Origin: Dehalococcoidia bacterium
GTDB taxonomy: Bacteria; Chloroflexota; Dehalococcoidia; SHYD01
Reading direction: 5' to 3'
Assembly: GCA_009692945.1 (NCBI GenBank)
Contig: SHYD01000001.1
Coordinates: 11,898 to 75,897, forward strand
Length of the DNA stretch: 64,000 bases
Shown: positions 3,779 through 57,062 of the stretch, one piece after another
Layout: each line of letters begins with the position of its first letter
How positions within the stretch are numbered: position 1 is the first letter of the stretch
Notes under the pieces: generated by a model
The model's database searches: none
The model's input: only the letters and a program-made list of their open reading frames with translations
Told to the model about the DNA's origin: nothing
Translations under genes and position numbers: made by a program

Positions 3779-3855
3779 GGCGGCCTCGGCAGGAATCGCA
3801 CCAGTATACCATCGGGGATCGTCGCCCTCGGCGGTGCGCGTGTGGCAGTATCTAT

Positions 3856-4204
3856 GCAGTGTCAGGGGTTCGGGGGTATGAGCCACTCCCCCCACCCCAG
3901 GAAAAAAGAGGAGAATTCTCTGCTGGGGGCACCCCATAGGAGTGGGCAGATTTCTGGTCAGACAACCTCGGCGGCTGTACTTCCCACCCACCCACCCATT
4001 TTGTTTGTGTGTGGGGACACCCCGCACCCCGGCAGAAGGGGCTGCGCCCCCTCTGCACACCCCCCGTCCTGGAACCCCCATCCAGGCATGAATTCAAAAG
4101 ATGCCCACTCCTATGGGGGCACCCCCACGCCCCCGGCAGAGGGCTGTCGCCCTCGTGCACTCCCACTTCTGAGCCCGGCCGCCCTCAACAGTGAACTCTT
4201 ACGG
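3856..4204. repeat. Mosaic GC-rich palindromic intergenic repeat, copy A
   Basis: Shares modules with 9 other copies: CCCCCGAACCCCTGACACTG end, GAGAATTCTC box, CCCATAGGAGTGGGCA box, (CCCA)4 tract, GTGTGGGGACACCCCGCACCCCGGCAGAAGGGGC hairpin module, GGCAGAGGGCTGTCGCCCTCGTGCACTCCCACTTCTGAGCCCGG module, and terminal CCCTCAACAGTGAACTCTTACGG. Confidence 0.8.
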
Positions 4205-14967: not shown

Positions 14968-15088
14968 CCCCCACAAATTGAGGAGCATTCTCGGTGGGGG
15001 CCACCCCCACGCCCCCGGCAGAGGGCTGCCGCCCCCGTGCACTCCCGCTCCTGAGCCCGATAGTACCCTCAATTGTGAACTCTTACGG
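14968..15088. repeat. Intergenic repeat, copy B (short form)
   Basis: GAGGAGCATTCTC box, then GGGGGCCACCCCCACGCCCCCGGCAGAGGGCTGCCGCCCCCGTGCACTCCCGCTCCTGAGCCCG, then CCCTCAATTGTGAACTCTTACGG terminus. Confidence 0.8.
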
Positions 15089-27974: not shown

Positions 27975-28262
27975 GAGTCCCCGTGCAAGAGTTTAGACTC
28001 GGGATTCGGGCACGGGGGTGCAGGGGGCAAAGCCCTCCTGCCGGGGGACTGGGCATAGGAGTGGGCCCCTTTTTACTTCATGCCTGGATGAGGGCTTTGG
28101 GACGGGGGTGTACAGAGGGGGCGAAGCCCCTTCTGCCGGGGTGTGGGGTGTGCCCACACACAAACAAAGTGGGTGGGTGGGGGGTACAGCCTTGGAGGTT
28201 GTCCGAGGGGGAACACCCCCACTCCTCTGGGGACTGGGGGTGTTCCCCCAGAAACGGTCGAG
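27975..28262. repeat. Intergenic repeat, copy C
   Basis: Contains CATAGGAGTGGGC box, ..AGAGGGGGCGAAGCCCCTTCTGCCGGGGTGTGGGGTGTGCCCACACAC module (inverted orientation), GTGGGTGGGTGGGGGG tract, GGGGGAACACCCCCACTCC, GAAACGGTCGAGGAG. Confidence 0.75.
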
Positions 28263-28407
28263 GAGGCGCTCCGCGAACTTCAGGTGGTCTATGGCATGAT
28301 CTTGGAGGAGTTCGCTGAGGAGGGCAGAGCGTTACGGCCCCATACTACCGTGACGGCCGGCGCCCGCGAGCAATTCACTCAGTTTCGATAACCGGAAAGG
28401 AAGCAGC

Positions 28408-29535: not shown

Positions 29536-29746
29536 AGCAGAACGGTCGAGCGTCGCTCCCCGCTACACTGAGGGTGGAGAACCAGGCCAGGAGGCGAACA
29601 ATGAGGACACACAGGGGGTTTAGCGTAGCTCCGCCGATGGTGGCGGGCTACGTGGCGCTCTGACCGTGGTGCTTGGTGCGGGCGGGCCACCGGCTGGTCC
29701 GCGAGGGGTCTTGGGCTGACATACCACGGTTAGAGGAGTTACCACC

Positions 29747-31282: not shown

Positions 31283-31287
31283 CGGGT

Positions 31288-31515
31288 GAACGGCGCCGGC
31301 CGGGGCGGCAGCCCGCTGCCGGGGGAGTGGGGGTGGCCCCATAGGAGTGGGAACCTTTTCAGTGTGTGCCTGGGCGAGCTGTTCGAACACGGGGAGTGCA
31401 GAGGGGGCGAAGCCCCTGCTGCCGGGGTGTGGGGTGTCCCCACACACAAACGGCATGGGTGGGTGGGTGGGTGGGTGGGAGTGGCCCATACCCCCGAACC
31501 CCTGACACTGAATAG
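31288..31515. repeat. Intergenic repeat, copy E
   Basis: CGGGGCGGCAGCCCGCTGCCGGGGGAGTGGGGGTGGCCCCATAGGAGTGGG; GAGGGGGCGAAGCCCCTGCTGCCGGGGTGTGGGGTGTCCCCACACAC; (GGGT)5GGG; CCCCCGAACCCCTGACACTGAAT end. Confidence 0.8.
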
Positions 31516-31598
31516 AAACGCACCGGCCCTCTGGTTGTCAGGAATCGGGATTCCTGCCTATAATACCCACATCCCCTCCCGCGAGACTGGGGATCCTT

Positions 31599-34877: not shown

Positions 34878-35531
34878 TCACCCCGCGTGCGGCGGCAGCG
34901 GGGCAGGAATCAAGTAGACCAACGTGAAGATCACGATCCATACGATGTCGACAAAGTGCCAGTACAGCCCGGCAATTTCCACCGTCAGGCTCTCCTCCTT
35001 GGGCAACCCACCCCGCAGCGAGACCACCACCAGCGACAGCAGGATGATGACACCGAGGGTAACATGCGCCCCGTGGAAACCGGTGAGGGTGAAGAAGCTG
35101 GTCCCAAACACATTGGTCGCCGGCGTCAGCCCCTCGGCGACAAACGCAGTGAACTCGAAAAACTGCCCACCCAGGAATACCGTGCCCAACAAGGCGGTGG
35201 CGATCAGCCAAACCCGCATGCCGCGAATGTGTCCCCGCTGGCTCGCTGCCAGCGCCAGTACCATCGTGAGGCTGCTCATCAGCAGCACAAAGGCACTGAC
35301 CGATGTAAAAGGGATATCGAAGACACCCTCAGGACCATTGGGGAACGGTCCCGCGAGGCTTCGGCCCCGGTAGATCATGTACGTCGAGATGAGGGCCCCG
35401 AACAACAGGCAATCAGAGCCGAGAAACGCCCACATCAGCAGTTTTCGATGATCCAGCCCGGTGGTGGTTTCGTGCTCCGGGGCGTGGGCCGCGGGATGTG
35501 CGTGCTGCAACGTCTCCTCCTGTTGAGTCAC
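34878..35531 (-). CDS. coxC: Cytochrome c oxidase subunit III
   Basis: ..FLGSDCLLFGALI..; ..FTLTGFHGAHVTLGV..; ..GLYWHFVDIVW... 217 aa. Confidence 0.9.
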   Translation of the reverse strand: MTQQEETLQHAHPAAHAPEHETTTGLDHRKLLMWAFLGSDCLLFGALISTYMIYRGRSLAGPFPNGPEGVFDIPFTSVSAFVLLMSSLTMVLALAASQRGHIRGMRVWLIATALLGTVFLGGQFFEFTAFVAEGLTPATNVFGTSFFTLTGFHGAHVTLGVIILLSLVVVSLRGGLPKEESLTVEIAGLYWHFVDIVWIVIFTLVYLIPAPLPPHAG

Positions 35532-35533
35532 CG

Positions 35534-37396
35534 TTAATCGCTAACCGGTTCCGAACACCAGGCGTAAACTCCGCCCAGCATGATCACCAACCCGACGCCG
35601 CTCAACCAGTAGCCAAAGATGACTCCCGCCAGCATCAGCGTCTGTCCGAACGCCGTCACCATGGGGAGGTATGACCCTTGAGGCATGTGGATGGCATGGC
35701 CATCTCCGTTGCCGGAGCCCGCTGTATGGGAGGGTGGGGCTGCGTGATGCGCGCCTTCACCACCATGAAGTCCGTACTTTTCGATCCAGAAGGCATCGCG
35801 TCCCTGCACCACCGGGACGGTGGCGAAGTTGTATTCCGGCGGCGGCGAGGGGATGGACCATTCCAGGGTCCGGCCGTCCCACGGATCCGGCCCGGCCTCT
35901 TTCCCGTTACGGCTGGTCCGCACCACATTAATGATAAATACCAGCACTGACAGCGCGATAACCAGGGACCCGGCGGTCTCGATCAGGTTCCAGAACTCCC
36001 ATCCCATGCCGGACGGATAGGTGTAGATCCGCCGCGGCATTCCATTGAGCCCCAAGATGTGCATGGGGCCAAAGGTGAGGTTCATACCGATAATCATGAG
36101 CCAGAAATTCAGTTTGCCCAACCCTTCATCCAGCAGCTTGCCGGTGCCTTTCGGCCACCAGAAGTAGAAACCGGAGAACAACGCGAGGATGGAGCCTCCG
36201 AACAACACATAGTGAAAGTGGGCCACGATGTAGTAGGTGTCCTGCTGCTGGTAATCGGTCGGCGGCGAGGCATGGGTTAGCCCGCTCAAGCCGCCGATGA
36301 TAAACATTGAGATGAACCCAATTGAGAACAGCATCGCAGTTGTGAACTTAAGCGACCCTCCCCACAGAGTGGCGATCCAGTTGAATATCTTGATGCCGGT
36401 GGGTACAGCGATGAACATAGTCGTCACGGCAAAAACCGAATTGGCCACTGGTCCCAGCCCCACGGTGAACATGTGGTGCGCCCATACCCCCCAACCCATG
36501 AAACCGATAAACACCCCGGCGAACACCACCGCGGGATAACCGAACAGCGGCTTGCGGGCGAAGGTGGGCAGCACCTCAGAAACGATCCCCATTGCGGGGA
36601 GGATGAGGATATACACCTCCGGGTGCCCAAAAAGCCAGAACAGGTGCTGCCATAGAATCGGATCACCGCCGTTTGCCGGGTTGAAGAAATTGGTGGCAAG
36701 GGGCGAGCGGTCCAGTTCCAACTGTATCAGTGCCACGGCGATGATCGGCATCGCGAAGATCAGCAGGAACGCCACCACCAGTGTCATCCAGGTGAACAGC
36801 GGCATCCGCATCATCGTCATCCCGGGCGCCCGCATGTTCAGGATGGTCACGATGAAATTGAACGAGGCCGCGAGGGATGCAGTCCCAAGTCCCAGCAGTC
36901 CCAGCGCCCAGAAATCAACGCCGGAACCAGCGTTGAACGCTCGCGAGGTCAGATTGGCATAGCCAAACCAGCCGGCGTTGGGCGCCCCCCCGAACAGGAA
37001 ACTGCTGTTTATGAACACGCCGCCCGCCACAAACACCCAGTAGCTGAACGCGTTCAGCCGGGGAAACGCCACGTCGCGGGCGCCGATCTGGAGTGGGATC
37101 AGGAAATTGAAAAACGCCGCGCTGAGCGGCATGATCACCAGGAACACCATGGTCGTGGCATGCATGGTGAACAACTGGTTGAAAACTTCCGGGTCCACCA
37201 CCTTGCCGTCCGGAAACGCCAATTGGAGGCGGAGCACGAGGGCTTCGACCCCGCCGATCAGGAAGAAGATGAACGACGTCACGCCGTACAGCACGCCGAT
37301 CCGCTTGTGATCGACCGTCGTCATCCAACTCCAGACCCCATAGTGGCTCGTCGGACGCCGGAGGACTCCGACCATGCTTCCGGTTATCGTGGCCAT
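35534..37396 (-). CDS. coxA: Cytochrome c oxidase subunit I (heme-copper oxidase catalytic subunit)
   Basis: ..WMTTVDHKRIGVLY..; ..WAHHMFTVG..; ..HFHYVL... 620 aa with a ~70-aa C-terminal extension containing a His/Gly-rich stretch and an extra TM helix. Confidence 0.95.
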   Translation of the reverse strand: MATITGSMVGVLRRPTSHYGVWSWMTTVDHKRIGVLYGVTSFIFFLIGGVEALVLRLQLAFPDGKVVDPEVFNQLFTMHATTMVFLVIMPLSAAFFNFLIPLQIGARDVAFPRLNAFSYWVFVAGGVFINSSFLFGGAPNAGWFGYANLTSRAFNAGSGVDFWALGLLGLGTASLAASFNFIVTILNMRAPGMTMMRMPLFTWMTLVVAFLLIFAMPIIAVALIQLELDRSPLATNFFNPANGGDPILWQHLFWLFGHPEVYILILPAMGIVSEVLPTFARKPLFGYPAVVFAGVFIGFMGWGVWAHHMFTVGLGPVANSVFAVTTMFIAVPTGIKIFNWIATLWGGSLKFTTAMLFSIGFISMFIIGGLSGLTHASPPTDYQQQDTYYIVAHFHYVLFGGSILALFSGFYFWWPKGTGKLLDEGLGKLNFWLMIIGMNLTFGPMHILGLNGMPRRIYTYPSGMGWEFWNLIETAGSLVIALSVLVFIINVVRTSRNGKEAGPDPWDGRTLEWSIPSPPPEYNFATVPVVQGRDAFWIEKYGLHGGEGAHHAAPPSHTAGSGNGDGHAIHMPQGSYLPMVTAFGQTLMLAGVIFGYWLSGVGLVIMLGGVYAWCSEPVSD

Positions 37397-37439
37397 CGGT
37401 GCGCCTCCACAAGGTTCACTGCCAGCGCGTTGGTCGCCA

Positions 37440-38591
37440 TCATTTCAGACTCAGCAGGTAGGGGACCACGGCCTGAATCTCGTCTTCGGTCAACCCGAGA
37501 TTCGGCATCAGCGCCCCACGCTTGACCTCTTGGGGGTCGCGAATCCAGCGCGCCAGGTTTTCGGGGGTGTTGTTGAGAACCCCGGCGGCGATCGTCCCCC
37601 TTCCACCAATGTGGGTCAGCGTCGGCCCCACCTTGCCGACGGCGCCAGCGAGTCCCTGGATCGTGTGGCAAGCTGAGCATTTCTGTTGCACGATCAGCGA
37701 GCCTTTTACCATTGCGGGATCGCCCGGCGGTTGGACCGGGGTCCGCTGATCCTTGACCCACTGGTCAAACTGCGCCTTTTCCTGCACCACCACCCTGAAC
37801 TTCATCTGAGCATGCTGGATGCCGCACAATTCGGCGCACTGGCCAAGGAACGTACCGGGCTCATCGACTTTGATGGTCAGAGGGTTGGAGCGGCCGGGCA
37901 CCACGTCCTGCTTGCCCGCAAGTTTCGGCACCCAGAAGCTATGAATGACATCGGCAGATTGCAGATCGAAGGCGACCACTTCCCCCACCGGAAGGTGGAG
38001 TTCGTTGGCAGTGACCACGCCGAGGCCGGGGTACTGGAACTCCCACCACCATTGGTGGCCGATGACCTTGACCTGCATGGAAACGTCGTGCTCTTTGGCC
38101 AGGTCAAAGATACTTGCAACGGTCGGAATCGCCACCGAAACGAGGATCACTACGGGAGCCAAAGTCCAGGCGATCTCCAGCCGGGTGTTGCCGTGGGTCT
38201 GGGCCGGCATTTCGTTCTCCGACCGGCGGCGGAAGCGGAACAGGATAAACAGCAACAGCCCCTGCACCAAAACGAACACCAGTGCCGCCCAGGCAAAGAT
38301 GATCCAGAACAGTTCTTGCTGCTTTTTCGCGACTTCCCCCACGGAAGACAGGGTGTCCTGGGGGTCTTTGCCACTGCAACTGGTGATGAACAGGGCGAGG
38401 ACGCCAACCAGCACCAACGAGAGGAAGGAAGCGGCGGCAGACCGGCGTGACGACAAGGTTGCCCCCTTGGCCAAACCCGTCGCGGCGCGGGCTGGCAGGC
38501 TACTTTGTGCAAGATTTCTCATAGTGGCAATCCAGTTGTTCAGTCTAGCAGAGGTTCCCCACACGGTCAACGCAAAATACGGGCAAATCAC
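37440..38591 (-). CDS. coxB: Cytochrome c oxidase subunit II with C-terminal cytochrome c domain (caa3-type)
   Basis: CuA site ..H..CAELCGIQHAQMKF.. and heme-c site CSACHTIQG in the C-terminal domain. 383 aa. Confidence 0.9.
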   Translation of the reverse strand: MICPYFALTVWGTSARLNNWIATMRNLAQSSLPARAATGLAKGATLSSRRSAAASFLSLVLVGVLALFITSCSGKDPQDTLSSVGEVAKKQQELFWIIFAWAALVFVLVQGLLLFILFRFRRRSENEMPAQTHGNTRLEIAWTLAPVVILVSVAIPTVASIFDLAKEHDVSMQVKVIGHQWWWEFQYPGLGVVTANELHLPVGEVVAFDLQSADVIHSFWVPKLAGKQDVVPGRSNPLTIKVDEPGTFLGQCAELCGIQHAQMKFRVVVQEKAQFDQWVKDQRTPVQPPGDPAMVKGSLIVQQKCSACHTIQGLAGAVGKVGPTLTHIGGRGTIAAGVLNNTPENLARWIRDPQEVKRGALMPNLGLTEDEIQAVVPYLLSLK

Positions 38592-38648
38592 TCCTCAACA
38601 TGCAGCGTTAGCGCCGTGGTGGATACAAGATACGGCGGATATTCACGC

Positions 38649-39521
38649 TCACGTAACCTTCCAGCGGTCAACCACCAGCGCGGCAAACAACAACGCCAGG
38701 TAGAGGATCGAGTACCGGAATAACCTGCGGGCAGCCAACGCACTGGCTTCCCGCAACAGCCGGACCGCGTGGTACAGGAACAACCCGCCCAACACGCCCG
38801 CGGCCACAAGGTAGAACACCCCGACCTGCTGGACCACCACGACCAGCAGCGTGAATGCTACGAGCCAGAGGGAATACATCAGGATCTGGCGCCGCGTCTC
38901 CGCCTCTCCCTTGACGATGGGCAGCATTGGGATGCGGGCTTTCTCGTACTCCCGCCGGATCAACAGCGCCAGGGCCCAGAAATGGGGCGGCGTCCAGAAA
39001 AAGATCACGGCGAACAGGTACACCGCCAGCAGGCTCACCTCTCCGGTGACCGCAGCCCATCCAACCAGCGGCGGCACCGCGCCTGCCGCGCCGCCGATAA
39101 CGATGTTGGATGGGGTCGAGCGTTTGAGCCAGCAACTGTACACCAACACATAGTAGAGAAGGCCGCAGAGGGCAAGCGTGGCTGCCAACCAGTTCGCCAG
39201 CAGCCCAAGCACCAGCGTCGATAACACCGTGAGGAGCATGCCAAACGCCATCGCCTGACGCGGCGTGATGAGCCCCGAGGGGATGGGCCGCAGGCTGGTG
39301 CGGCCCATCATGCCGTCGATGTCGCGGTCGATGAAGCAGTTGAACGTGTTGGCCGCCCCCGCCGACAGCGCTCCACCGGCCAGCGTCGCTGCGACCAGCG
39401 CCAGGTCCGGCATGCCGTGCGCTGCCATCATCATGGCCGCCAGCGTGGTCAACAGCAACAGCGGGACGATGCGAGGTTTGGTCAGCGCGAAGTACGCCCT
39501 CACAGTCTGCGAGGCGTTCAT
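38649..39521 (-). CDS. ctaB: Protoheme IX farnesyltransferase (heme O synthase)
   Basis: MNASQTVRAYFALTKPRIVPLLLLTTL..; UbiA family; ..NCFIDRDIDGMMGRT... The six-frame ORF (to 39917) has a Gly/Arg junk extension overlapping ctaA. Confidence 0.9.
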   Translation of the reverse strand: MNASQTVRAYFALTKPRIVPLLLLTTLAAMMMAAHGMPDLALVAATLAGGALSAGAANTFNCFIDRDIDGMMGRTSLRPIPSGLITPRQAMAFGMLLTVLSTLVLGLLANWLAATLALCGLLYYVLVYSCWLKRSTPSNIVIGGAAGAVPPLVGWAAVTGEVSLLAVYLFAVIFFWTPPHFWALALLIRREYEKARIPMLPIVKGEAETRRQILMYSLWLVAFTLLVVVVQQVGVFYLVAAGVLGGLFLYHAVRLLREASALAARRLFRYSILYLALLFAALVVDRWKVT

Positions 39522-40462
39522 GAACCCGCCGCCTCCCTGGTGAACAACGGCCGGGGCGCCGCCACTCCCTCGACCAACCTGTGGCCCCGGCTGGCCACCG
39601 AAAACACCGCAACTGCGCTGCACCAGACCGCCGCCGCGCCCGCAACGTGGAGACCACGCAACACCGCCGGCAAGTCGGACGAGACCGCCGCCGCACCAAT
39701 CAGGAGCTGGGCGCCCAGTGTCACGCCCAGGGCCACCGATGCCTTGTCCAGACCGGGGTAACCGGCCCGCCGACGCCAGCCCGACACCAGCACCACAAAC
39801 AGTACCCCGGCCGTCGCGTAGGCCATGAACCGGTGGGCCAACTGTAGGTCGGTCAGCACGTTCCTGCCGAAGGGGGCCAGCTCCCCGTTGCACGCAGGAA
39901 AACCGATACAGGCCCAACTCGCGCCGCTGGCCCGCACCAACGCCCCGGTCATCGCCAGCACGAAAGCCAGCGCCATGGCAACGGCCGTCCAGCGGACGAA
40001 TCTGTCGCCATCATCTAAGTTGGGGGCACCAACAGCGAGGCGACCTGACGCGTGGACCGACATCCAAACCAGCAAACCGAGGATGGCCATGGCGAAGGCG
40101 AGGTGGACGAGCACCACGTAAGGCGGCAACTCCAGCAGAACGGTCACCGCGCCGAGAACGATCTGCCCGGCCAGCAACAACGGCGCCAGGATTCCCGGCG
40201 CCATCAGCCGGGGTTCGTTCCGGTGGCTGGCCACGGTCAGCGCCACCACTCCCACGATCAGCAGCGAGTCCGCCCCGGCAATGAACCGGTGGGAGAACTC
40301 GATGATCGCCGCGACGTCTGGGGGTGGGACGAACCCGCCGTGGCACAACGGCCAGTCAGGGCATCCCAGCCCCGACCCGGAGACACGGACCACGGCGCCC
40401 GCCACTATCAGCAGATAGGTGGTGGCAGCGGCAGCGGCGGTCAAGGCTTGATAGCGAGACAT
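39518..40462 (-). CDS. ctaA: Heme A synthase (COX15/CtaA)
   Basis: ..RVSGSGLGCPDWPLCHG..; ..LQLAHRFMAY... Multi-TM. The stop overlaps the ctaB start (ATGA). Probable start MSRYQALTAAAA. Confidence 0.85.
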   Translation of the reverse strand: MSRYQALTAAAAATTYLLIVAGAVVRVSGSGLGCPDWPLCHGGFVPPPDVAAIIEFSHRFIAGADSLLIVGVVALTVASHRNEPRLMAPGILAPLLLAGQIVLGAVTVLLELPPYVVLVHLAFAMAILGLLVWMSVHASGRLAVGAPNLDDGDRFVRWTAVAMALAFVLAMTGALVRASGASWACIGFPACNGELAPFGRNVLTDLQLAHRFMAYATAGVLFVVLVSGWRRRAGYPGLDKASVALGVTLGAQLLIGAAAVSSDLPAVLRGLHVAGAAAVWCSAVAVFSVASRGHRLVEGVAAPRPLFTREAAGS

Positions 40463-42959: not shown

Positions 42960-43270
42960 ACCGTGAGAATTCACTGTTGAGGGGGTGCATGGCTCAGGAG
43001 TGGGAGTGCACAGCAGCCCCTCTGCCGGGGGAGCGGGGGCGCCCCTCACAGAGAATTCTCCTCTTTTTTCCTGGGGTGGAGGGAGTGGCTCATATCCCCC
43101 GAACCCCCGACACTGCTGTGAAAAGGCGGTGGCTCACCAGGAACAGCATCTCCTCCAGGGGTGTCCAGCGGGTCTCCCGCTGGCGGGGAGTGTGAGGGGT
43201 GTACCCTCACACTCCATCTCTTTGTTTCTCCTCCGGCAGGGAGGGGGCCAAGGGGGGCGTCCCGTCCGCC
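42960..43270. repeat. Intergenic repeat, copy F
   Basis: GTGAGAATTCACTGTTGAGGGGG terminus; GGCTCAGGAGTGGGAGTGCACAGCAGCCCCTCTGCCGGGGG; GAGAATTCTCCTCTTTTTTCCTGGGGTGGAGGGAGTGGCTCATATCCCCCGAACCCCCGACACTG; a G8 run near 43275. The 3-prime boundary is uncertain. Confidence 0.75.
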
Positions 43271-48336: not shown

Positions 48337-48665
48337 CCGCTACGGAAGTAAGAGTTCACTGTTGAGGGGCGGCCGGGCTCAGGAGTGGGAGTGCACGAGG
48401 GCGGCAGCCCTCTGCCGGGGGCGTGGGGGCGCCCCCATAGGAGTGGGCAGGTTTCTCCTCGGACAACCTCGAAGGCTGTACTTCCCACCCACCCACCCAC
48501 CCATTTCGTTTGTGTGTGGGGACACCCCACACCCCGGCAGAAGGGGCGCGCCCCCCCTCTGAACACCCCGTCCTGAGGCCTCCATCCAGGCATAAACTCA
48601 ATCGGCGCCCGCTCCTATGGGGACACCCCCAAGCACCCCCGGCACAGGGCCGCCGCTCTGCACAC
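48337..48665. repeat. Intergenic repeat, copy G (long form)
   Basis: GTAAGAGTTCACTGTTGAGGGGCGG terminus; CGGGCTCAGGAGTGGGAGTGCACGAGGGCGGCAGCCCTCTGCCGGGGGCGTGGGGGCGCCCCCATAGGAGTGGGCA; (CCCA)5; GTGTGGGGACACCCCACACCCCGGCAGAAGGGGCGCGCCCCCCCTCTG; CCTATGGGGACACCCCCAAGCACCCCCGGCACAGGGCCG. Confidence 0.85.
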
Positions 48666-48699
48666 CCGCTCCCCGGATCTTCCCCGGATCGGGCGCTGA

Positions 48700-48728
48700 T
48701 TGACACGTCCTGGGTGCGATGCTAGTGT
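48700..48728 (+). promoter_or_regulatory. Putative sigma70 promoter for the chrB-domain gene (TTGACA-N17-TAGTGT)
   Basis: attgacacgtcctgggtgcgatgctagtgtg, about 70 nt upstream of the ATG at 48797. Confidence 0.45.
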
Positions 48729-48796
48729 GGGCCTCGCCTCGTCCGGTGTCAGACGAGGCGTCGCCACGAATGTTATGCCAACAAGGAGACCTCGCC

Positions 48797-49330
48797 ATGA
48801 AGTGGGTCACAAGAGACCGGGTGCATCTCGACCGCGTCGCCTGTCCGTGGCTGATCAAGCGGTTTGTGGACAAAGATGCGGAGTTCGTGTTCGTCGCCTG
48901 GGGAAAAGAGGATGAACGGCCTGCCGACGCCGTCCCCTATGCGCTGCCCGGCGTCGAACTCAGTCCCCACGACGACGCCGGCTCGACCTTCGATAAGATC
49001 ATGCGCAAGTACAACCTGAAAGACCCTGCGCTCGATATCCTCGCGCAGGTGGTGAACTCGGGCATCCATCAGTCGCTGCATCATGGCCACAAAGATGAGT
49101 TCGACGTGCCTCGGATCGAAGGCGTCGGCCTTGGGGCGCTGTCCGAAGGGATCATGCTGATCACGAGAGACGACCACGACAACCTCGACAAGAGCTTCCT
49201 GATGTACGACGCCATGTACGCCTACTGCCGCAGCGTCGTCATTCAGCACAACGACCCGTCCCTCAAAGAGATGAAGCTGCTGGACCGCAGCGCTGAAATC
49301 AAGAAACGGATGCAGGCTGCGCCCAAGTAG
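48797..49330 (+). CDS. ChrB C-terminal-domain protein (chromate-resistance-associated, rhodanese-like fold family)
   Basis: MKWVTRDRVHLDRVACPWLIKRFVDKDAEFVFV.. matches the conserved start of Chrom_resist/ChrB_C-domain proteins. 177 aa. The six-frame start at 48719 is inside the repeat/promoter region. Confidence 0.6.
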   Translation: MKWVTRDRVHLDRVACPWLIKRFVDKDAEFVFVAWGKEDERPADAVPYALPGVELSPHDDAGSTFDKIMRKYNLKDPALDILAQVVNSGIHQSLHHGHKDEFDVPRIEGVGLGALSEGIMLITRDDHDNLDKSFLMYDAMYAYCRSVVIQHNDPSLKEMKLLDRSAEIKKRMQAAPK

Positions 49331-49334
49331 GTAT

Positions 49335-49468
49335 TGGGAGCCGCGTGTTGGGGGACACCCCCACTCCCCCGGCAGAGGGCTGCCGCCCTCATGCACTCCC
49401 GCTCCTGAGCCCGATAGCGCCTCAATTGTGAACTCCTACCGTGCATGCACTCCCACTTCTGAGCCCGG
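49335..49468. repeat. Intergenic repeat, copy H (short)
   Basis: GGGGGACACCCCCACTCCCCCGGCAGAGGGCTGCCGCCCTCATGCACTCCCGCTCCTGAGCCCGATAGCGCCTCAATTGTGAACTCCTACCG, followed by a partial second module (..GCACTCCCACTTCTGAGCCCGGC). Confidence 0.8.
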
Positions 49469-49553
49469 CGAGGGCCGCATGGTACAATGGTTAATACCCC
49501 ATGTGAGCTGACCTACCATTATCGGCCGTCTGCGTCCGGCCCGGGAGCGCTGG

Positions 49554-56809: not shown

Positions 56810-57062
56810 CGGGCCGACCCAAGCTCGGGAGTGGGAGTGCACGAGGGCGGCGGCCCTCTGCCGGGGGAGTGGGGGTGCCCCCATAGGAGTGGGCACCTTT
56901 TGAATTCGTGCTGGATGTGGATTCCAGGACGGGGGGGGGTATGCAGAGGGGGCGCAGCCCCTTCTGCCGGGGCGTGGGGTGTCCCCCACAAAGAATTCTC
57001 CTCTTTTTCTGGGGTGGGGGCGTGGCTCACACCGCCTGATCCCCTAACACTGAATCGATACA
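56800..57062. repeat. Intergenic repeat, copy J
   Basis: CTCGGGAGTGGGAGTGCACGAGGGCGGCGGCCCTCTGCCGGGGGAGTGGGGGTGCCCCCATAGGAGTGGGCACC; G9 run; GCAGAGGGGGCGCAGCCCCTTCTGCCGGGGCGTGGGGTGTCCCCCACAAAGAATTCTCCTCTTTTTCTGGGGTGGGGGCGTGGCTCACACCGCCTGATCCCCTAACACTGAATCG. Confidence 0.85.

Follow-up and report, generated by a model that had tools for sequence, protein, structure and literature searches.

(GGGT)n tracts with quadruplex-forming potential as a linker module in a mosaic intergenic repeat family of a Dehalococcoidia bacterium

The pilE G-quadruplex (G4) of Neisseria gonorrhoeae, a single-copy motif with the sequence G3TG3TTG3TG3, drives pilin antigenic variation by recombination, and its function depends on the strand and on transcription through the motif. 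The oligonucleotide d(GGGT)4 (T30695/T30923) has been solved as a propeller-type parallel quadruplex with three tetrads and single-nucleotide loops (PMC3241632), and r(GGGU)4 is likewise a quadruplex (PMC3594281). G4-forming simple-sequence repeats of the GGGNATC type are found in Xanthomonas and Nostoc, generally without association to mobile elements (Rehm et al. 2015, PMC4692102), while families bounded by terminal inverted repeats (TIR) and TIRtrons are tied to tyrosine transposases, soil Acidobacteria being among the hosts reported (Di Nocera et al. 2013, PMC3733652). This study concerns four (GGGT)n tracts found in a stretch of 64,000 nucleotides from an uncultured Dehalococcoidia bacterium of Lake Baikal (Chloroflexota; assembly GCA_009692945.1, contig SHYD01000001.1, positions 11,898 to 75,897 of the forward strand), hereafter called the window, and the intergenic repeat family that carries them. 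As a sequence feature the tracts are well characterised, while their structure is predicted and their function putative.

Repeat finding, BLAST mapping and alignment revealed that all four tracts, designated below by their approximate positions (4, 28, 31 and 48 kb), occupy the identical position in one module of a mosaic intergenic repeat; being copies of one repeat module, they are therefore not independent events. Nine intergenic loci of the window carry the family, in elements of 110-360 nt composed of modules here named M1 to M4 (Table 1), so that an earlier note on this DNA, which had located the tracts inside dispersed intergenic repeats, was right on this point. The same note had attributed a tract to each long copy; four copies do contain one, but the long copy at 56823-57020, which shares the hairpin module, does not. 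The basic unit consists of a leader, GCGGGAGTGCA, a first hairpin (HP1), the sequence TGCC and a second hairpin (HP2); HP1 is formed by GCAGAGGGC, a 4-nt loop and GCCCTYTGC, and the core of HP2 by G4-5/C4-5. In M2 units the order after HP2 (GTGTGGGG-TGT-CCCCACAC) is ACAAAC, four variable bases, (TGGG)n and AAGTACAGCC; the linker ahead of the tract, after the two conserved hairpins, is ACACACAAAC-NNNN. The AAGTACAGCC stretch leads into a unit of opposite orientation, so that the tracts at 4 kb and 48 kb each link the two units of a tail-to-tail dimer. At 31 kb, where HP1 is CAGAGGGGGC-GAA-GCCCCTGCTG (31399-31421) and HP2 lies at 31427-31445, the copy is a hybrid, its tract being joined directly to AGTGGCCCATACCCCCGAACCCCTGACACTG, so that the left part of M2 is fused to the M4 tail within the tract; in the M4 unit type, AGTGGCCCATACCCCCGAACCCCTGACACTG comes after another G-run tract, TGGGGTGGGGGG.

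The number of G-runs across the four tracts is 3, 4, 5 and 6. The canonical motif (G3+ N1-7)x3 G3+, which matches the sequence requirement for a parallel three-tetrad structure, is found at 31457-31479 (six runs), 3983-3997 (four) and 48484-48502 (five); the 28-kb tract has just three G-runs and lacks it, and the canonical G4 motif announced by the earlier note is thus confined to the other three. The coordinates given there proved exact for three tracts, but direct reading sets the start of (CCCA)5 at 48484 rather than 48485. The tracts adjoin the decamers CAAACGGCAT at 31 kb and CAAACAAAGT at 28 kb and, on the minus strand, CAAACAAAAT at 4 kb and CAAACGAAAT at 48 kb. G4Hunter scoring, the check proposed by that note, returned 2.35, 2.4 and 2.37 for the 31-, 4- and 48-kb tracts, respectively, which on a combined regular-expression and G4Hunter search are the sole quadruplex motifs of the window with loops of at most 3 nt. 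Three loci contain the four-run motif GGGTGGGTGGGTGGG in exact form, compared with none in 100 dinucleotide-preserving shuffles. Quadruplex motifs with loops of up to 7 nt are not above chance (16 observed, 12.2 ± 3.1 in shuffles), and their total number is ordinary for the GC content of the window, 63.7%.

Given their sequence, copies with at least four runs should form a very stable G-quadruplex. The minimum-energy folds of the whole spacers, computed by ViennaRNA with its quadruplex option, a coarse model for G4 energies, contain a three-layer G4 in the 31-, 4- and 48-kb copies, with a gain of 31-33 kcal/mol and with HP1 and HP2 kept; in the 28-kb copy the gain is just 1.1 kcal/mol and the predicted G4 has two layers. 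Both hairpins also emerge from the RNAalifold consensus of 50 units, taken from the window and from metagenomes, with compensatory changes: in HP1, a G.U wobble is present in 28 of the units and a G-C pair in 20, and in HP2, 17 sequences have GC-to-AU changes on both sides at one pair. The covariation of the outer stem of HP2 can be followed by direct reading (GC/GC, TC/GA, GTC/GAC, CTT/AAG and GTGT/ACAC).

An artefact of assembly or sequencing in a low-complexity, G-rich region might be suspected, the source being a metagenome-assembled genome and the contigs of relatives breaking at the repeats. LeuA and YceD of the window are identical to NCBI proteins encoded on a 136-kb contig of a Dehalococcoidia metagenome-assembled genome. 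The source organism is also present in the Logan assemblies of runs SRR8561390 and SRR8561391, which derive from Lake Baikal samples taken at 1250 m and 1350 m (bioRxiv 10.1101/2020.04.02.019802). A contig of SRR8561391 (L082; 1350 m), assembled independently, starts inside the repeat and contains the 23-nt tract of the 31-kb locus and 140 nt of flank exactly as in the window; this match excludes the assembly artefact that the earlier note had considered. Moreover, homologous tracts occur in unrelated metagenome assemblies and a sequencing read is longer than any of the tracts, so that an artefactual origin is hardly credible. The comparison between assemblies covers the 31-kb locus only, because at the others the contigs break in the repeat or the flanking proteins are not on record (IlvC, the formyltransferase-like protein and the ChrB_C-domain protein had no exact matches). 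Since a scan with the exact pattern of junction and tract, CCACACACAAACNNNNTGGGTGGG, found no match in the genome-contig and metagenome-contig collections, the source species is not represented there.

The left flank and tract region are 88-93% identical between copies that differ in unit number. The slipped-strand variation put forward by the earlier note agrees with these differences, which recur in relatives; at the 31-kb locus, instead, L082 and the window have the same tract, so that no length polymorphism between assemblies was seen there, in a single comparison of very low power. On the basis of the alignments, the differences in unit number fit slippage or unequal recombination. Tetranucleotide repeats of 4-6 units, variable between copies, might also recall a phase-variable contingency locus, in which unit changes switch a neighbouring gene on or off. 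However, all tracts are intergenic and none lies in a coding frame; the 31-kb tract is 56 nt upstream of a -35-like hexamer and not in the spacer between hexamers; around the copies at 4 kb and 48 kb the scan detected no promoter-like site; the neighbours are housekeeping genes (leuA, ilvC, pyrD and the sigma-factor gene); and the length of the 31-kb tract is equal in two independent assemblies from different depths. Phase variation is thus very improbable.

The G-rich strand corresponds to the sense strand of the downstream gene for each of the four window tracts (yceD, ilvC, pyrD and the sigma-factor gene), and the same orientation is found in three metagenome contigs of relatives (L091, the first copy of L112, and L088), for a total of seven out of eight loci. 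Within the 64 kb, two tracts are located on each DNA strand, indicating that their orientation tracks transcription and not replication. The G.U wobbles of HP1 work solely on the G-rich strand, and this strand also bears the T-runs after the hairpins. Together, strand bias, wobbles and T-runs point to an action as RNA or as non-template DNA. The intrinsic-terminator consensus scan flags the M1/M2 junction at 4117-4104 (minus strand) alone and no site at the tracts themselves; the T-runs on the G-rich strand are separated from the hairpins by spacers. The 31-kb tract lies 175 nt past the leuA stop codon and 56 nt ahead of a promoter-like site for yceD; with this site downstream of it, the tract is part of the 3' region of leuA and not of a yceD leader. 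The 4-kb tract is about 200 nt upstream of pyrD and the 48-kb tract about 190 nt upstream of the sigma-70-family gene, both genes being on the minus strand like the G-runs.

Comparison with related genomes suggests a recent, lineage-specific spread of the repeats. In L002, the nearest species-level genome (85% LeuA identity, complete chromosome), the two spacers compared, ilvN-ilvC and ilvC-leuA, are short and repeat-free. In groundwater relatives with at least 90% LeuA identity, a diverged double-hairpin unit comes directly after leuA, and all their contigs end within about 100 nt of the leuA stop codon, in the repeat, and never reach a tract at the orthologous site. The ilvN-ilvC spacer of L083, from a groundwater relative, contains one unit and an intact hicB-like gene (L083 1123-1341); in the window the 5' half of this gene is replaced by M2, tract and M3, and a 3' remnant persists at 28243-28340. 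For the ilvC-leuA spacer, L087 represents the empty site of the window's unit of about 110 nt, a clean insertion with no definable target-site duplication. The comparisons with L083 and L087 thus indicate that, inside this genus-level clade, copies of the family have been gained and rearranged. The hicB-like gene is of the antitoxin type, and in the window the repeat has overwritten its 5' half. The short-read leuA contigs of the clade (L083-L087 and L001) all end inside the repeat as well, and the family therefore systematically fragments the assemblies of this clade.

These same comparisons bear on the possibility that the tract is a joint of recombination or transposition, either with TGGG (CCCA) recognised or cleaved by a mobilising enzyme or with G-runs as preferred sites of insertion or recombination; repeated cleavage and joining, or template switching, would then yield the tandem copies. 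Indeed, the tract lies exactly at module junctions, including those of the tail-to-tail dimers and of the hybrid 31-kb copy, and the ilvC-leuA unit is located immediately 5' of a G-run sequence, TGGGGGTGGGG, that is present in the L087 empty site. In addition, the mobilisation of REP (repetitive extragenic palindromic) and TIR families by tyrosine transposases is documented, together with tetranucleotide tags (PMC3733652); GTAG has this role for the REP-associated tyrosine transposases (RAYT). On the other hand, none of the 28 window proteins scanned against Pfam is a transposase, and neither a GTAG nor a CGTC tag is present; the single empty-site comparison is ambiguous, as the G-run of L087 could be a remnant of the element, and it defines no target-site duplication. 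A joint of this kind is distinctly unlikely.

The repeat family extends beyond this genome. A degenerate HP1 pattern matched 54 metagenome contigs (L088-L141) from groundwater and soil, and the leader GCGGGAGTGCA, although absent from the search pattern, is conserved in nearly all of them. The core formed by GCGGGAGTGCA, GAGGGCGNCNGCCCTYTGCC and a second G/C hairpin is nearly identical across these contigs, which span 45% to 70% GC; examples in the window are at 48385-48450, 56831-56896 and 4101-4166. A soil-type subfamily has perfect 14-nt inverted repeats at its ends, TGACATCCACTCAT...ATGAGTGGATGTCA. Rfam 15 gave no hits on the window at gathering thresholds, and, with the E-value limit set to 1, only weak, spurious hits on related loci and on the repeat regions; BLAST of a composite element and of a soil-type element found no match in the plasmid collection. 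Judging from these sequences, the core-sharing repeat seems to be a mobile or structured element that is widespread and undescribed, and the more surprising side result of the analysis is how widely its 45-nt core is conserved among metagenomes.

The tract module itself also recurs outside the window. M2-type copies in groundwater relatives read GGGTGGGTGGGTGGGG (L091), GGGTGGGCGGGTGGG (L112/L107, one locus, with a loop T-to-C change that preserves four runs), GGGTGGGTGGG (L112, contig end) and, in degenerate form, GGGTGGTGGGGTGGG (L088), with 3-4 G-runs each. When a G-run tract is defined by two or more G3+ runs separated by 1-nt loops, 9 of 47 units have one within 45 nt after HP2, compared with 11 of 756 random segments, and these tracts are always preceded by a linker of the type ACAAAGAAYTCTCC...TTTTCC; this recurrence makes (GGGT)n a short-linker variant of an architecture of hairpins, linker and G-tract. 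On a bolder reading, which is quite doubtful, the G-run tract would be an obligatory working part of widespread, undescribed, strand-specific hairpin elements, with a G4 role on the sense strand; it would apply to the GCGGGAGTGCA-GAGGGCGNCNGCCCTYTGCC core with its second hairpin in groundwater and soil bacteria of 45-70% GC. There, a DNA or RNA G4, and not a hairpin plus U-tract, would provide termination, insulation or a barrier to RNA decay, or else the G4 would be the structure recognised in single-strand mobilisation of the element, both proposals being as doubtful as the reading they belong to.

The explanation that is favoured here, tentatively and at slightly less than even confidence, is that the tracts are a slippage-prone, G4-capable linker of a mobile repeat and possibly a structural block in transcripts. 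The G3T microsatellite is the linker module of M2 units in a lineage-specific family of mosaic repeats resembling bacterial interspersed mosaic elements (BIME) and miniature inverted-repeat transposable elements (MITE). M2 units comprise two GC-rich hairpins, a short A/C-rich linker and the G-run tract, which in the fullest copies is placed exactly between tail-to-tail units. During the spread of the copies the count of GGGT units changed, leaving 3 to 6 G-runs, probably through unequal recombination between G-run modules and through slipped-strand mispairing; the 31-kb copy is one such recombinant, with its joint inside the tract. Anatomy, homology of position, variation in unit number, strand bias, lineage specificity and the match with an independent assembly are thus shown, whereas G4 folding in vivo, slippage as the cause and any effect on transcripts are inferred. 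Where at least four runs are present, the tract may fold in vivo as a parallel three-tetrad G4 on the sense strand of the neighbouring gene, i.e. in non-template DNA and in the transcript. Together with the adjacent hairpins, the G4 would then most plausibly act as an RNA block, a 3'-end or insulator structure hindering read-through or 3'-5' exonucleases; such a block would parallel the role proposed for REP elements and would differ from a phase-variation switch. A block at the transcript level is preferred because the strand-specific features support it, a pausing or RNA-structure role of the tracts being a conjecture.

Several observations weigh against this explanation. The G4 energies come from the coarse model already mentioned, and the fold energies of the elements are not unusual compared with shuffles (z from -0.6 to -1.6). 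The second L112 copy, at a contig end, faces the opposite way, and the orientation bias rests on 8 loci, with a one-sided binomial probability of about 0.035. The sister genome L002 runs the same operon without repeats, so any role for the host is dispensable, and the periodicity of the tract could be maintained, in the absence of any selection, by microsatellite homogenisation through slippage. M2-like hairpins without a tract are found in L122, L123 and L095 and at 56.9 kb of the window, and three of the eight known module copies have fewer than four intact G3 runs; such short or absent tracts imply that the G4 is not obligatory for the element.

The absent and short tracts, as well as the repeat-free orthologous spacers of L002, would be expected if the tracts were neutral passengers, that is, a slippage-prone simple repeat in the linker of a selfish repeat, with an incidental G4 potential and no function. 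The density of quadruplex motifs, not enriched overall in the window, agrees with this view, and so do the differences between copies, which consist of whole units or single bases as in the decay and expansion of microsatellites. Conversely, G-run tracts recur after HP2 across subfamilies and organisms at about 13 times the background, the position of the tract is retained while the adjoining linker diverges, the T to C change in the L112 loop leaves four G-runs intact and the strand bias matches gene orientation. Neutrality is a serious possibility, if a somewhat unlikely one.

If the tracts fold and act in vivo as the favoured explanation proposes, the strongest known quadruplex sequence would have been spread through a bacterial genome by a mobile repeat, with G4 roadblocks in core metabolic transcripts (ilv-leu, pyrD and sigma factor), and repeat mobility, microsatellite instability and non-B structure would be linked in a poorly known phylum. 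On the practical side, the repeats break short-read assemblies of the clade, and the conserved 45-nt core is a marker for an apparently cross-taxon family.

Table 1. Tracts, repeat copies and associated features of the window. HP1 and HP2 are the two hairpins of the basic unit, M1 to M4 the repeat modules.
Feature	Coordinates	Strand	Basis or remarks
(GGGT)5GGG tract	31457-31479	+	Six G3 runs; direct reading, Tandem Repeats Finder
(CCCA)4 tract, (TGGG)4 on the minus strand	3983-3998	-	Four G3 runs; direct reading, Tandem Repeats Finder
(CCCA)5 tract, (TGGG)5 on the minus strand	48484-48503	-	Five G3 runs; direct reading, Tandem Repeats Finder
GGGTGGGTGGGGGG, degenerate tract between ilvN and ilvC	28171-28184	+	Just three G-runs
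Hairpins 5' of the 31-kb tract	31399..31445	+	Alignments, RNAalifold consensus with compensatory changes; DNA fold retains both
Composite repeat downstream of leuA, M1-M2-tract-M4 tail	31283..31519	+	Repeat mapping, alignment
Composite repeat between ilvN and ilvC, degenerate M1-M2-tract-M3	27990..28242	+	Mapping, alignment with L083
Composite repeat M1-M2-tract-M3-M4, between divergent pyrD (-) and formyltransferase-like gene (+)	3848..4200	-	
Composite repeat, diverged M1-M2-tract-inverted M1; tail-to-tail dimer	48340..48700	-	
Family copy M1-M2-M4 without (GGGT)n; HP2 joins directly to CACAAAGAATTCTCC	56823..57020	+	
Simple copy M1+M4, inverted repeats of about 19 nt at the ends	42963..43116	+	
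Single hairpin unit just past the ilvC stop codon	29448..29523	+	Empty site in relative L087
Single M1 unit between aspS (-) and radical-SAM gene (+)	14975..15063	-	
M1 unit downstream of ChrB_C-domain gene, inverted relative to M1 at 48348-48436	49337..49469	-	
Promoter-like site TTGTCA-18-TATAAT between repeat and yceD	31535..31564	+	11/12 matches

The genes adjoining the repeats are all of the housekeeping type: ilvN, ilvC, leuA, yceD, pyrD, aspS, dcd and the genes for a Lon-like protease, a sigma-70-family factor, a GGDEF/EAL protein and a heptosyltransferase. The repeat at 48340..48700 is located between the sigma-factor gene on the minus strand and the ChrB_C-domain gene on the plus strand. 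The latter (48719-49330, 203 amino acids) is bracketed by inverted M1 copies (48348-48436 and 49351-49439) that are 87% complementary, a REPtron-like layout, but the gene does not code for a transposase. At the end of M1 an alternative hairpin, GGTGCCC-N10-GGGCACC, is directly followed by TTTT on the G-rich strand, which gives terminator-like M1/M2 junctions at 4104-4117 (minus strand), at 56880-56905 (plus strand) and at other sites. The copy at 42963..43116 is followed by a T-run and a G-run tract, TGGGGTGGAGGG. A 28-nt segment at 36480-36507, inside the COX1 coding sequence, matches the M4 tail at 86%, probably by chance, and was left out of the family.

Elsewhere the window encodes enzymes of riboflavin synthesis and, at 34878-39917, subunits I-III of cytochrome c oxidase with a UbiA-family prenyltransferase, in a Dehalococcoidia genome; these genes are consistent with aerobic life in the deep, oxic waters of Lake Baikal. 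Upstream of leuA, at 29603-29665, a mini open reading frame of 20 codons, MRTHRGFSVAPPMVAGYVAL, contains an 11-bp hairpin, GTAGCTCCGCC...GGCGGGCTAC, and is kept in all relatives: L087, L083 and the 85%-identity genome L002. It may be a leader or attenuator, although a run of leucine codons is absent and Rfam gave no hit.

As for class assignment, the element shares with REP and BIME sequences short, GC-rich imperfect palindromes conserved as structures (HP1 and HP2, 50 units), an extragenic location and a mosaic organisation, with M1 in both orientations and tail-to-tail dimers in which the tract is the linker. The GTAG or CGTC tag, a criterion taken from Di Nocera et al. (PMC3733652), flanks neither hairpin, and the units begin with GCGGGAGTGCA. 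Terminal inverted repeats, small size and lack of coding capacity are MITE features, and in the 43-kb copy the ends pair as GAGAATTCACTGTTGAGGGG / CCCCTCACAGAGAATTCTC; neither a RAYT gene nor a parent autonomous element was seen among the 28 window proteins. The element therefore resembles BIME and MITE sequences, yet it cannot be classed as REP. Other identities were dropped: a CRISPR array for want of regular spacing, an integron attC site for want of the R'/R'' consensus, a coding repeat (Gly-Trp-Val) for want of a coding signature, and Chi sites, as the heptamer is not in excess outside the repeats.

The REP and BIME sequences of Escherichia coli are, like the family described here, extragenic mosaics of GC-rich palindromes in direct or inverted order with specific linkers, found at gene 3' ends or between cistrons, and a function in mRNA 3'-end protection or termination on the transcribed strand has been proposed for them. 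Differently from these, the present family has no GTAG or CGTC tag and no RAYT gene in the window; it consists of double hairpins with a GCGGGAGTGCA leader, one of its linkers is a G4-prone microsatellite, and some copies have terminal inverted repeats of about 19 nt, in a MITE-like manner. The pilE G4 is similarly a short-loop parallel motif upstream of a gene, whereas here the motif belongs to a multi-copy module beside housekeeping genes, with no known recombination system. TIR families (PMC3733652) are also moderately abundant, intergenic and bounded by inverted repeats, and occur as monomers, dimers and clusters; no TIRYT or RAYT gene was found, instead, near the units examined here. The core of T30695/T30923 d(GGGT)4 and of r(GGGU)4 is identical to that of the tracts (PMC3241632, PMC3594281), but those are isolated synthetic oligonucleotides, while the genomic tracts are placed in a duplex or in a long transcript, beside competing hairpins. 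The GGGNATC repeats of Xanthomonas and Nostoc are likewise dispersed, mostly intergenic G-rich tandem repeats beside housekeeping genes; their unit number also varies around about four, the quadruplex minimum, and their placement too is unlike that of phase-variation loci. Their unit has 7 nt, whereas here it has 4 (G3T, with single-nucleotide loops), and the tract is a fixed linker in a mosaic hairpin repeat, with a copy number taken from one 64-kb window. Known kinds of sequence are combined in this family: a G4-prone simple repeat is found inside a mosaic intergenic repeat.

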